A stretch of DNA of 64,000 nucleotides from Octopus vulgaris (GCA_951406725.2 OX597821.1:75082001-75146000), one strand, 5' to 3'; shown: positions 7,419-33,113, counted from the first letter of the stretch. The notes: generated from the sequence alone by a model not told the origin. Program-made: numbers and translations.

Positions 7419-7492
7419 TAGTTCGACGAGTCGTGTTCTGTCCTCACCTTCGAAACACGCTGGAGTTGAACTAAGGACAGCTGATGAAGGGG
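7419..7492 (+). ncRNA. Candidate non-circularly permuted hammerhead ribozyme (order: site, GAAA, CUGAUGA)
   Basis: Stem III CGTGT 7432-36 / ACACG 7455-59; site GUU ending at 7437; stem I CTGTCCT 7438-44 / AGGACAG 7474-80; GAAA 7452-55; CTGATGA 7481-87; stem II CCTT 7447-50 / AGGG 7488-91; extra helix TAGTTCGAC 7419-27 / GTTGAACTA 7465-73. Confidence 0.75.
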
Positions 7493-7693
7493 TTTTTCCT
7501 TGTGTAGTTTGTCTTGTACTCTGTTTTTTCGTTGTTAAAAAAAGGTCCGTTCCATGCTTGTTTTTACGTTTTCGTTTCTCGTTGAGGTCTACGTCTATTT
7601 GTGGTGTCCTGTACTCACGTATATATATTTATATATGCATGTTTATATACATGTAGATGTAGGTACGTACATATATGCATGTATGTATGCATA

Positions 7694-7782
7694 TATTTTA
7701 TTTATTACACTATTGTATGACTGAGCGCCCTCGCGTCGATTCGATTCGTTTCGTTTCGTTTCTTCTTCTCCAAGTAAGATTT
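7694..7782 (+). repeat. 89-bp direct repeat, copy 2
   Basis: Identical to 6876-6964. Confidence 0.95.
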
Positions 7783-9387
7783 GATATATATATATATATA
7801 TATATATATATATATATATATATGTGTGTGTGTGTGTGTGTGTGTGTGTGTGTGTGTGTGTGTGTGTGTGTGTGTATGAATAGGGGTTATAGTATATATG
7901 CATGAATATGTTTATGTATGCATAAATCTGTAAGTTTGTATCTTTACCTTAACTAGAATAAAACAAAAAAAAAAAAGAGAAATCCTTCCAAAATTCGGTT
8001 AATATAATCTATTGTTTACTCTGTTTACCGCTAATGAATTCGTAAATAACTTACAGCTTCCACCGTTCGGTTGCCTGGCAAGAACACAACGAACGAATCT
8101 ACTACGACATCATAAATTGATAATTATTCACCATGACTACTACTACTACTACTACTACTACTACTACTACTACTACTACTACGATTATTATTGCATTTTT
8201 TGGGTTCCTTCTTTATCAAGGAGTCTGTCAGTTATGCTTGATTTTTGACGTCCAACATGAATTTGATATCAGCTTCTGAACTAAGTAAGATATATAACTG
8301 ATGATTGGCTATCAGAAAACCGTATATCCTTAACTGTCACGACTGAAAACTAGAAACACCTTTCTCCTCATCCTTCTACCAATCATTTCCCCCCTCTCTC
8401 TCTCTCTCTCTCTCTCTCTATCTCTCTCTCTCTCGCTGTCTTCCTCTTTCCTCTGTTGCCAGCTATCTCCCTATCAGTTTCTCCCACTCCCACCTCTCTC
8501 TATATCTCGTTCACGCCAAGTCTGTTTTAATCGACTTTACTGACCGACCGATATAGAAAGGACAGACTGACTGATAAAACTGACCGGCGACCGGCCAACT
8601 GACCTACCGAGAGACGCAAATAAAAAAAAGGAAACAAACATAAAAATAAATAACAATATGGCGGGTGAAAGATATTTCCTCCAACCATCTGCCTTCTTCC
8701 TCTTGCTTAGCTATCAAGGCTCGCTCATTACAAGCTGACCGCCCTAATTATAATGATGAATCATTCAGCGGAATGATGGCAGTTAAAGTGTCCATTTTGA
8801 AGGTAGGGTGCGGTGGGAGGGTAATGATTGACATATCCAAGTTGAAACTGTACAAAAAGGTCTATTTAGACGCCTGTTCTGAAAAGGGTCTTTCACGTGA
8901 CTCTACGAAGCCTGTCAATGTTTCAAGTGCTGTGTCAACTTGTTGTGGTTTAATGTTGCAGTTGATGTCGTTGTTTGTGTTGTTATTAGCGTTGGATCAA
9001 CGTATAAGGTTGACTCCCCCATTTCGGGGGGAACTCTCTCTCTCTCCGGTTGCTAGTTATTGTTATCTACATATTGATGTTCCTTGTTACTGTTAATCTC
9101 ACTCGTTTACTTAATCACATAAATATATTTCGTTTCTTCTCGCTTCTTTTTTTAATTTTTTTATTTTTGGTATGTATTTCGTTTCTCTGCTTTTTCCTAA
9201 CTTCTCCTAAGACAACAAAAGGCATATCCTCCGCATGCGAGGCCCCCGTGGCGAAAAACAATTCAACCCTGCCTCTCATCGTCGTTGTTGTTGCTGTTGT
9301 TGCTATTGTTATCATTCGGTCATAGGCGAACATTATTTCGAAACTGTGGCGTGTGCAATAAGCAGAGGAAAATCTCATCACATGACA

Positions 9388-9795
9388 CTACTACTACTAC
9401 TACTACTACTACTACTACTACTACTACTACTACTACTACTACTACTACTACTACTACTACTACTACTACTACTATTACTACTACTAATACTACTACTGCT
9501 GCTGCAGCTGGTACTAGTACTATCATCACCACCACCAGCACCACTACCATTACTACTACTATCACTACTACTTCTGATATTACCACTAATATTAACACCA
9601 CCACTAATACTACTACTTCTACCCCCCAACAACAACACTATTACTACTGCTACTACTACTACTACTACTACTATAATAATAATATTACTACCAACAACAC
9701 TACTACTACTTCTATCACCGCCACCACCACAATTACCACAACCACTACCACTAACTACAACTGCCTACACCACCACCACCACCCCACCCATCACT
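9388..9795 (+). repeat. (ACT)n/(ACC)n compound trinucleotide tract
   Basis: Seen directly; it explains the poly-T/L/V ORFs in the track. Confidence 0.9.
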
Positions 9796-9796
9796 A

Positions 9797-29900: not shown

Positions 29901-30369
29901 CCGTACGTCCGTACGTACGTACATACATATATTCTTACATACATATAATGTATTAATGGTAGTCTCTCGGCCAAGGAAACACGATTCTGCAACTTCTTGG
30001 TGAGCAATCTGCAGATGATTTGTTTATTAGTGTTCAATTATTTGTGCTGCACATAAGCTCACTTCCTATCCGATCGAACAACAAAACCCTGTTACTGATG
30101 TTGAAATTCCAATGAATGAGCCTTGGATCTAGGTTAGAAACAAGCACTTTCTCTATTGGCAAGAAATCTTGAAATAAAACTGAAATATGACATACAAACA
30201 TATGTGTGTGTGTGTGTGTGTGTGTGTGTGTGTGTGTGTGGTGCCTGTTAGTGATTTAGAAATGCTCAAATGCATCACTGTCATTGTAATATTCAATTTC
30301 ACTCGTGTGTCCTGTGTTGATCCACTTCCACAGTGTATGGACCCTAAATCAACCGCTGAAAATATCTCT

Positions 30370-31330
30370 CTATATAGAGATACTGAAATATGTCACCCTG
30401 TTAGATTTTGAGAATTCAAAGTTTCGTGCGTTTCGTACACACAAATGAGTGGAAGAGAGGAATTTAAAGAAATAAATGGCTGTGAACCTTGTGGAGTAAG
30501 GGGATAAGTTTGGAGGTGATTCCACCAATGTGAAAAGCTTGGAATTGGATGTAATACAAGGCAGAGAAAGTTCTGTGAGCAATACAGCCTAATAGTTCGA
30601 TATAACTGCCGGATCCACACTGTCTTCATAAGCAGAAGCTTCGAAGACTCTCCGCAAAGAACATAGCAACTCATTTCTATTTTAACATCGCAAAACGCAA
30701 TCACTACTCATATCTAAAAAGAAAAAAAAGCACACCTCCACCCTCCCTCAACCTGATTAACATATCCCTAGAACCGGAATGCTGTGACAGACGCTGGGTC
30801 TCATCGTTACTTGAGAATTCTCATGATGTTTTCAAATATTCAACATAACAAAGACTGACCTTCTTTTCAAAGTCAGAAATACTTTATAGCCCCAACAAAT
30901 TTCAGCTCAATACAAACCTAATGTGAGACCTACACTTAAATACAACTGCTACACCGGACATTGCAGCTGTTACACACCCGGCCCGCATCCAAAAGTGCGC
31001 CACTCGCCTGACTGAAATGCTATCATTTACTAACCCACCTCAGCATCTGATGGTCTGATGCTCTGTTCTACTTCTCTAACATTAACACACTGGCCTCTGC
31101 TCCACGGAATTGCCTGATCTCGTCTCATTACTCAGCTACTCCTTATCCTTTCGCTTGTTGTTTTCTCATCTATCATAATTTGTTCACGTTACAAATTTTT
31201 ACTAACTACTTCGCCTTCACTCGGAGCATCAGTCCTCTGAAACCCTTCCCTGCCCATGTTTATCCTGCAGCCACCAACTTCCAAATGTCCACCAAAAAGA
31301 TAACCTGCATCAGTCTCACCGGTCCTGTGG
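30370..31330. mobile_element. Highly decayed CR1/L2-like LINE 3' fragments, both orientations
   Basis: Plus strand YKPNVRPTLKY...RIQKCATRL...FPAHVYPAATNFQM; minus strand SQNFL...WWNHL. Confidence 0.5.
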
Positions 31331-32542
31331 GAGTCTGGGAAGGCTTATGGGCGCAGAGTCTTCCTCCAGCACAGATCATTAAGAAAAATAGGAAGTAAAA
31401 CAGACTAAAAAAGTTGATGTTCGCCGGACGAAGAAGCATATGTGTATAAAACGGAAGAAATTATGAATCTAAATGATTTAGTAGCAATTGATAAAGCAAT
31501 TCAACTCTGATAGTTTTTTAACGGGGGGAAGAAGGGCAGAGATAAATTGTGATTATTATATCTACTCTCACTTCACATTTCTTCCTCTCTAACAGCTTCT
31601 TTTTCTTTTCGATGCTTAAAAATAACATAAACATCTCAGAAAACACCTCTGCTCCCTTCAATCAGCCTGACACGATCGTAATTATAATAAAATTCAATTA
31701 TCTTCTGCTTCTTTTACTATTTTCTTCCTGCTCTCATTTCTTCCTTCGAGCCATATTAACACGGCCGACTATTTCCCACTCAGCACCCATTACTCTTTCT
31801 ATCTCACTATTTTTAAATATGTTTACCAGTAATTTTATTCTGTTTCTATCCCTGCTTGCCACTGTTTCTATCTGTCTGTTTTTCTCTCCCTCTTTACATA
31901 CACACACACACACAGACATAACATTCATTGCTCTTTTCCCCAAAACCTTGTCCTCACTCTCTCGCTTGGTCACTCATTCTCATTAACTCTATCATGTCTC
32001 CTATTTATTTCATTAGTTCATCCTTGATACCGTCTTGCTACATTTTCCACCCTAACTTCATTCTCTCTCCTCACCAGAGGGCTGTACACTCTATAATTGT
32101 GTATTCATTCCTTCTGCCCACTCAGCACTCTTTTCTCTTCTTATTTCGTTCTGCCTCTTTCACTGGTTCAAAGCTTATTTCAACCCTTTTTTCTCTTTTG
32201 CATCTCTCTTAATTTACACCTACATACACACATGCACACATACACATATATGCCCACATCTACATATACCTATAAACATGTGGGTATATGTGTATGTTTG
32301 TACATGTGTCTTTAGCGTACAATATTTGGTTGATAGATATTTGCATAAATTAAAATAAACACCTAAATATGTATGTACTATACATGTATAAACATGTATA
32401 CATCAATAGATACAAGCATATATTACGGCCACATATGCGGACAGATCAATAAGTTAATACATATGGTTATGTATGAATGCGCGTGCACACACACACACAC
32501 ACACACACACACACATTAGTACACACACATTTATTGACACAA

Positions 32543-32710
32543 GACGGCGAACTGTCAGCAGCATTAGCACACCGGGTTTAGCGGTATTTCATCCGTTTTT
32601 ACGTTCTCAGGTCAAATCCCGCTGAAGCAGACTTTTCATTTTATTATTTCTGGGTCGATAGCATAACTACCGGTTGTGCAACGGGATCGACTGTAATTGA
32701 CTTAACTACT
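32543..32710 (+). mobile_element. Diverged family B SINE
   Basis: GACGGCGAACTGTCAG...GGTCAAATCCCGCTGAAGCAGACTTT...GGGTCGAT. Confidence 0.65.
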
Positions 32711-33038
32711 CCTGCGTATGAGTATAAAAACTGTAGACCTCTGCTCAGCTATGTTGAGTCCGTGTGCCAGAGTATCATCATCAAGCTCGTATGATCCCTT
32801 GGTGAAGAGAACATGCTCAGGTCCTCGTCTTTCAGTGGAGATAACATAAGGTAATGCAATCCATTACTAATATATTTGATAAATATATGATATTATATAT
32901 GTATACACACACACATATATGTATACACACACACATACGCGCACACACACACACACACACACACACACACACACACACACACACACACACACACATATGT
33001 ATACACACATATTCCCGGCAAGTTTCTTGCCGGTGCCT

Positions 33039-33113
33039 CCAGAGTGGAAGCAATATTATCGATAATGGCCGAAATTGCGTTCAGCCCTCTGGTCGATAAC
33101 TGATGAGCAGTTG
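33039..33113 (+). ncRNA. Candidate non-circularly permuted hammerhead ribozyme, second family
   Basis: Stem III GCAAT 33050-54 / ATTGC 33074-78; site AUA ending at 33055; stem I TTATCGA 33056-62 / TCGATAA 33093-99; GAAA 33071-74; CTGATGA 33100-06; extra helix CCAGAG 33039-44 / CTCTGG 33087-92; upstream hairpin CCGGCAAG/CTTGCCGG at 33015-33033. Confidence 0.75.

Follow-up and report, generated by a model that had tools for sequence, protein, structure and literature searches.

The closest described relatives of the structure considered here are the type SGC hammerhead ribozymes, HRIMA-1 and its variants, in which the cleavage site is followed by GAAA and then by CUGANGA (Eckert et al. 2023, PMC10085705). 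They are active in vitro, at 0.007-0.19 per minute. They come from metatranscriptomes, and according to that paper none occurs in the genome of a known organism, with the exception of one type-GCS RNA. We analyzed a stretch of 64,000 nucleotides from Octopus vulgaris (GCA_951406725.2 OX597821.1:75082001-75146000; hereafter the window), in which two loci show the same arrangement. Locus 1 belongs to repeat family A and locus 2 to family B. Both have the type-SGC order in (TA)n-flanked repeats without an open reading frame (ORF), on a new scaffold with an extra helix, P0, as a clamp and a reduced stem II. We consider it likely that both are non-circularly permuted hammerheads that would cut after the NUH triplet. 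They would lie at the 3' end of short retroelements that have no ORF, belong to the Naiad lineage of Penelope-like elements and would be served in trans by a helper reverse transcriptase (RT)/endonuclease.

Among mobile elements, Naiads encode an ORF with an N-terminal GIY-YIG and an RT in elements of 3.4-4.4 kb, whereas families A and B showed none. Craig et al. 2021 (PMC8557442) described Naiads as being without canonical hammerheads and flagged eight "half cores", including an octopus and a squid element. The non-LTR (long terminal repeat) retrozymes of animals (PMC7229834; preprint 10.64898/2026.07.22.740005) are also ORF-less, ribozyme-bearing and arranged head-to-tail, and Penelope-like machinery has been proposed for them. 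Their ribozyme is type I, whereas here the order is SGC, in mostly dispersed, 5'-truncated single copies and in units of ~720-880 nt. Minimal Penelope-like type I hammerheads (PMC4209133) likewise lie near the 3' end of the element and are reported to have a stem II whose 5' end carries an unpaired base; those are nested, lack a stable stem III and have been proposed to work as dimers, whereas the octopus structures have a full stem III and are pseudoknotted. In the literature covered, which included few subscription journals, none of the papers found reports a non-circular hammerhead from an animal genome. An earlier sequence-only reading of the window had left its novelty to be checked: the topology has been known since 2023, whereas its presence in an animal genome, the scaffold and the link to Naiads are new.

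All the elements which that reading had listed for the two loci are present, in the same layout, and the distance from GAAA to CTGA is 29 nt at both (Table 1). The seven base pairs given for stem I hold at both window loci but not in the majority of family-B copies, which have six. At locus 2, the stem I 5' strand and the adjoining linker (33056-33065) form a perfect 10-nt palindrome, which could pair between two RNAs.

Table 1. Features of the two loci and of the elements that carry them, in positions of the window
Feature	Position	Strand	Parts and partners	Basis
Locus 1 upstream hairpin	7380..7411	+		sequence and minimum-free-energy fold
Locus 1 P4 (tentative), purine strand	7410..7416	+	candidate partner: pyrimidine run at ~7494-7500, after stem II	tentative
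Locus 1 P0, 5' strand	7419..7427	+	partner 7465-7473	sequence, descriptor, covariation
Locus 1 block S	7432..7437	+	stem III 5' strand 7432-7436; GUU triplet, to 7437; predicted cut 7437/7438	sequence, descriptor, 5'-end pile-up directly 3' in family copies
Locus 1 stem I, 5' strand	7438..7444	+	partner 7474-7480	descriptor, covariation
Locus 1 block G	7448..7459	+	stem II 3' strand 7448-7451; GAAA 7452-7455; stem III 3' strand 7455-7459	sequence, covariation
Locus 1 P0 3' strand adjoining stem I 3' strand	7465..7480	+	P0 7465-7473; stem I 7474-7480	sequence, descriptor
Locus 1 block C	7481..7492	+	CTGATGA 7481-7487; unpaired extra A 7488; stem II 5' strand 7489-7492	register backed by subfamilies G and H
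Locus 2 upstream hairpin	33015..33033	+	8 bp	sequence and minimum-free-energy fold
Locus 2 P0, 5' strand	33039..33044	+	partner 33087-33092	sequence, descriptor
Locus 2 block S	33050..33062	+	stem III 5' strand 33050-33054; AUA; predicted cut 33055/33056; stem I 5' strand 33056-33062	sequence, descriptor, covariation
Locus 2 block G	33070..33078	+	C11.1; GAAA 33071-33074; stem III 3' strand 33074-33078	sequence
Locus 2 3' part	33087..33107	+	P0 3' strand 33087-33092; stem I 3' strand 33093-33099; CTGATGA 33100-33106; G10.1 33107	sequence, descriptor
Family-A element	6876..7790	+	ORF-less; direct terminal repeat of 97 bp, 6876-6972 = 7694-7790; period 818 nt; then (TA)n/(TG)n	
Family-B element, 5'-truncated	33012..33170 (3' limit approximate)	+	starts ~44 nt before the cut site; between (CA)n and short (TA)n	

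The bare pair of motifs, GAAA and CTGA, is barely above chance in the window (9 matches vs 3.99 expected; 3 of 100 shuffles reach 9), which would suit a chance co-occurrence in low-complexity repeat DNA. A descriptor scan with a randomized control, of the kind proposed in the sequence-only reading, gave a different picture. When the motif pair had to be accompanied by NUH and by stems I and III of at least 5 and 4 bp, respectively, exactly two sites, the two loci, were found in the 64-kb window and none in 60 resampled windows. The descriptor also matches copies of the families. Chance is refuted by this control together with those on copy number, covariation and helices given below, and its probability is negligible. 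In descriptor matches of these families, the distance from the site to GAAA is 12-17 nt, mostly 14-16. At the gathering score, Rfam gave no match at the loci, as expected for a pseudoknotted permutation. With the block order of the published type SGC and the covariation of stems I and III, this bears out the view that the fold is a non-circular hammerhead which nested searches miss.

Copy numbers were determined in the 2.8-Gb genome assembly (G000), in which the window is part of contig C8, with control pattern counts run alongside. For family A, 1,604 candidates yielded 40 scored matches (96-100% identity), and for family B, 584 candidates yielded 41 (85-90% identity, locus 2 itself aside). 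The exact clade-A core occurs 5,181 times, the exact family-B core 165 times and the 3'-end core of the octopus Naiad 456 times (control 0 in each case). The generic pattern CGAAA-N22-28-CTGANGA was found 37,367 times vs 4,883 in the control, an excess of ~32,000. The loci examined sort into at least six subfamilies of A and the families G, H, B, F, D, D2 and E, where G, H, F and D2 are based on three copies each and E on one copy. Family D supplies the commonest SGC-order core among the first 100 listed matches of the generic pattern; its members (e.g. L109, L110, L157 and L256) show tandem periods of 720-793 nt, yet have the weakest stem II. The two window repeats, which had been described as unrelated, share one design and are probably distant relatives.

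For the analysis of covariation, 20 copies of clade A/G/H and 19 copies (18 distinct) of the B/D/E/F clade were hand-picked, mostly intact ones, and aligned. In clade A/G/H, stem III is 98% paired, with double changes in four of five pairs, and stem I is 87% paired, with double changes in five of seven. P0 is 71% paired, also with double changes in five of seven pairs; here the G and H rows sit one column out of register and were scored as broken. In total, 81 cells of this alignment are double-changed vs 31.6 in shuffles, none of 500 of which was as high, and slid controls gave at most 23. In the B/D/E/F clade, stem I is 97% paired with five of six pairs double-changed (0/500 shuffles); alignment offsets bar a covariation count for stems III and P0, which pair in the family table. 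These counts are strong indications, not probabilities, because related sequences inflate them. Among 30 loci found with the pattern in the animal's own genome, 17 have both stem I and stem III, and most of the others are 5'-truncated; the two stems form in none of 80 tested metagenome matches to nearly the same pattern and in none of 80 tested viral-contig matches to a related pattern (at least 120 returned in each case). Stems I and III covary strongly among genomic copies across subfamilies. The claim that every helix covaries was made on a list of helices without stem II, which is the weak one. A further helix, P4, between a purine run before P0 and a pyrimidine run after stem II, is a tentative candidate for additional pairing in clade A: 85.7% of its cells are paired and two of seven pairs are double-changed in clade A/G/H, and it competes with the upstream hairpin.

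The invariant core (CUGANGA, GAAA, U16.1-A15.1 and NUH) is kept, with U-A in 20/20 copies of A/G/H and 18/18 of B/D/E/F. In locus 1 and clade A, stem II has 4 bp, two of them G.U, after one unpaired A that follows A9. It is 92% paired, and one of the four pairs changes on both sides among the 20 copies. The register with the extra A is kept in families G and H with different letters. One extra base after A9, a U, is also present in HRIMA-1 (PMC10085705), whereas the available part of PMC2632901 contains nothing on such a base. A 5-bp stem II register in clade A that uses G8 and A9 was considered as the active form and rejected, since it is not kept in G and H. For family D, a stem II after a 5-nt insertion was likewise rejected, since it is not kept in D2. 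An SGC-order hammerhead is most likely active in clade A.

The octopus structures share with type SGC the block order, the invariant core, the crossing of stems I, II and III, an extra helix with one strand adjoining the stem I 3' strand and, in clade A, the extra base after A9. The distance from the site to GAAA is also near the 13 nt of a published SGC construct, as judged by eye. They differ in occurring in tens of thousands of genomic copies, in a stem II of 1-4 bp vs ~5 bp in the published examples, and in the partner of the extra helix, which lies upstream of the site here (P0) and downstream of stem II in theirs ("I"). Helix "I", between the linker and a strand 3' of stem II, is absent here, and the linker pairs with the upstream P0 strand. 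The published descriptor, CUGAUGAG or CUGAUGAUG with at least two further pairs and a linker of at most 15 nt (PMC10085705), misses locus 1 because an A follows the core and locus 2 because stem II is too short. Since its stem II has 1-2 bp, we class locus 2 as working like type SGC, not as a member of it.

To map the 5' ends of insertions, clade-A copies were sampled with a 16-mer that lies ~165 nt downstream of the predicted cut and has 4,229 matches in the genome (control 0). The analysis covers 80 of the first 100 matches listed, which all lie on contig C1; for each of them, the 5' limit of homology was determined. Five copies were dropped (two without upstream family sequence, two with internal duplications and one tandem twin), which left 75. 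In 19 of these 75, the 5' end lies at -1..+25 of the predicted cut, vs 2.2 expected from the background rate, and in no case among the 40 copies at risk does it lie in -31..-2. A count of 19 in a 27-nt window was never reached in 5,000 uniform simulations. The edge of the pile-up is within 1 nt of the predicted cut. The DNA upstream of these 5' ends is microsatellite, an inverted copy or unrelated DNA, so the pile-up is not a divergence of subfamilies. A few copies of D, E and H also start at +9..+15, too few for a test. Most simply, part of the template RNAs would have started at the cut, and the pile-up would then be indirect evidence of cleavage in vivo.

The same ends might come from a transcription start, a host nuclease or stalling of the RT, with the fold serving as a protein-binding or processing signal derived from a hammerhead that no longer cuts. 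The weak stem II would agree with this, as would a report on another Penelope-like element, for which insertion in vitro did not need cleavage and no RNA reads ended at the site (PMC11167929). However, the catalytic letters and NUH are conserved while the helices turn over, and the position of the edge is that of the cut. Stalling at the 3' strands would put ends at +22 or beyond, yet 14 ends lie at -1..+13 and three at +26..+50. We therefore hold a non-cutting fold to be very improbable and keep to a self-cleaving one.

The 97-bp terminal repeats of the window family-A element are 99% identical by self-alignment. Neither this unit nor the other units examined contain an RT or GIY-YIG motif or an ORF. 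Among 118 distinct copies, the tail is repeated upstream in direct orientation in 18, and in 13 of these 18 the period is 720-883 nt and the interval contains no ORF; an inverted copy lies upstream in 18 of the 118. Most copies are solitary, and tandem units also occur. Element ends adjoin (TA)n-rich DNA, as seen without a control count. Partial-tandem, inverted and microsatellite-targeted insertions are the layout described for Penelope-like elements (PMC8557442). With the high copy number, the (TA)n flanks and the direct and inverted tail repeats, the description of these repeats as microsatellite-associated, Penelope/retrozyme-like mobile elements holds. A splice-donor-like GTAAG (6956-6960 and 7774-7778) closes the family-A tail directly ahead of the TA run; retained introns are a known trait of Penelope-like elements.

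Naiad consensus sequences (PMC8557442, supplementary file S5) were read by eye; part of the 54 Naiads was covered, and the counts that follow are lower bounds. The 3' ends of Naiad_Obim and Naiad_Ovul show the full SGC layout with P0, ~90 nt before the TA-rich end. Three Acropora Naiads have the SGC order with a stem III of 14 bp. SGC with P0 was seen in at least six further passages (parts 8, 9, 12 twice, 19 and 25), which by position are probably ctenophore (with a weak stem I), Clytia, box jellyfish, acanthocephalan, arthropod and squid. At least five passages from nematode Naiads (Naiad-2 and -3_Nbra according to their headers, the other three by position) have type CSG, in which stems I-III are full and the "I" helix is long; Eckert et al. 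2023 gave just two CSG sequences, from metagenome DNA (PMC10085705). The SGC layout was not seen in three bivalve Naiad ends checked whole by eye. Naiads thus resemble families A and B in their (TA)n targets, in partial-tandem and inverted insertions and in the SGC layout with P0 at the 3' end of several consensus sequences. The flanks of families A and B contain no alignable similarity to the Naiad-type locus L378. Since the layout is shared as judged by eye, without alignable flanks, and the test for a joined ORF was negative, the link of the two families to Naiads is one of design and behaviour.

The shared 3' end of Naiad_Obim and Naiad_Ovul would also be explained if the loci were the 3' ends of heavily truncated autonomous Naiad families and not dedicated non-autonomous units, and cephalopod Naiads have been described as old remnants (PMC8557442). 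However, the 13 repeated units of regular period have no ORF between their tails, the clade-A copies are young by their identity, and the upstream flanks of 1.5-9 kb (mostly 1.5-2 kb) showed no ORF for any copy, including one for GIY-YIG and RT. This explanation is improbable, and dedicated non-autonomous units remain our preferred reading.

A Neptune-type parent was considered and set aside. At L046, a family-B copy is followed on its 3' side by a Neptune RT/GIY-YIG fragment, and at L076 and L147, clade-A copies have Neptune ends on their 5' side. Around that GIY-YIG family, in 45 loci, the family-B probe matched two and the family-A probe two. Because of these few matches, and because Neptunes end in their own conventional minimal hammerhead, we attribute the adjacency to shared (TA)n targeting. 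By eye, the Neptune-type ends at L076 (~1205-1165, minus strand), L091 (~5845-5885) and L147 (~4535-4580) show a minimal type I hammerhead with a palindromic stem III, in which the 3-8 core pair is changed, to A-U in L076 and L091 and to U-A in L147. Another locus, L142, contains a Penelope-like RT/GIY-YIG frame (1257-2830, 526 aa open), after which, at ~3675-3770, comes a type I hammerhead whose stem II is long and whose stem III is palindromic, again by eye.

Several observations weigh against working hammerheads of Naiad origin at both loci. Nested folding of the loci is not better than that of shuffles (z +0.1 to -1.7), a comparison that is uninformative because the fold is a pseudoknot. 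Kinship among copies and hand-picking inflate the pair counts of the alignments. The measurement of the pile-up is limited to clade A and to a single contig, without a control family. No Naiad-type RT motif was found in the G000 loci examined, and no Naiad ORF joined to family A or B was found. Two same-strand family-B cores 3,952 bp apart (L499, G000:C10) were tried as a full Naiad and rejected, as 1.4 kb from the middle is a LINE-type (long interspersed nuclear element) RT, in a frame open for 467 codons. As for stem II, it has 1 bp in the window copy of locus 2 and 2 bp in the family majority. In B, D, D2, E and F it has 1-2 bp (1 bp in D2, E and F): the pairs that fit after an insertion of 0-2 nt are G10.1-C11.1 and, in some cases, one more. 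G8 and A9 of clade A can be drawn into a competing 5-bp helix, and in most SGC-type Naiad ends stem II is not a consistent Watson-Crick helix. We regard stem II as not well supported at locus 2, and catalysis by the locus-2 family as less certain.

With a stem II so minimal in most families, a real hammerhead might act as a dimer or across tandem units, where the GAAA block of one unit would meet the site and CUGA block of another, or might need a protein in place of stem II. The minimal Penelope hammerheads proposed as dimers have low activity in vitro (PMC4209133), tandem units exist here, locus 2 carries the palindrome over the stem I 5' strand, and covariation is without power to tell pairing in cis from pairing in trans. 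However, P0 and stem III fold locally in one strand, and the site-to-GAAA distance is held close to that of the published construct. Furthermore, the palindrome is absent in families A and D, and copies are mostly solitary. Action as a dimer or with a protein is unlikely in our judgment, and cleavage by single molecules of SGC order is the reading retained.

The retained reading suggests the following course. During synthesis of the RNA, P0 and stem III would be the first to fold, into a nested hairpin that keeps the cut site beside GAAA. The CUGANGA block would dock next, with stem I forming as a pseudoknot together with the short stem II, and the RNA would cut itself after NUH. A Penelope-like RT/endonuclease acting in trans would prime at (TA)n targets a few hundred nucleotides downstream and copy back. 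On cut RNA, the RT would run off the new 5' end and give copies that start directly behind the site. If the RNA is uncut, multimeric or circular, the RT would run through and give full units of 720-880 nt with a repeated tail. Catalysis, the order of folding, the identity of the helper and the circles are points that we infer.

The window contains other repeats and coding remnants. At 910-2082 (+), a 390-aa open frame has just one weak Pfam match, below the cut-off; we take it to resemble the front of a non-LTR retrotransposon ORF. Fragments with a transposase-like motif at 44725-45132 (+) and 46519-47010 (-) are presumably from mariner-type transposases. Tandem 184-199-bp units of one abundant repeat lie at 22146-22671, 39590-39958 and 55939-56426, and similar sequence flanks locus 2 at ~32600-32700 and 33330-33500. 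At 55099-55388, a GC-rich repeat with a 15-nt period is followed by (CTA)n, which is atypical for this AT-rich window.

The non-circular permutation has so far come from a few hundred metatranscriptome sequences without a named host, and it is now found in an animal genome in tens of thousands of copies, whose many covarying subfamilies offer ready material for work on structure and mechanism. If such a fold is active, a hammerhead that has one pair in stem II and is held together by its pseudoknot topology would be a new structural solution. The results also suggest that standard nested descriptors undercount animal ribozymes. On balance, we favor the wider view that many Naiads carry non-circularly permuted hammerheads. 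In ctenophore, cnidarian, arthropod and cephalopod elements, these would have the SGC order, an upstream P0 and a stem II that is minimal or missing; in nematodes, they would be of type CSG and have all stems full. Through the non-autonomous descendants of Naiads, such hammerheads would rank among the most numerous ribozyme forms in this genome (~30,000 cores); they may cut in vivo, the cut setting the 5' end of new insertions. This offers an answer to the stated puzzle of the missing Naiad hammerhead, and the pile-up would be a genomic footprint bearing on whether hammerhead cleavage matters for Penelope-like retrotransposition.

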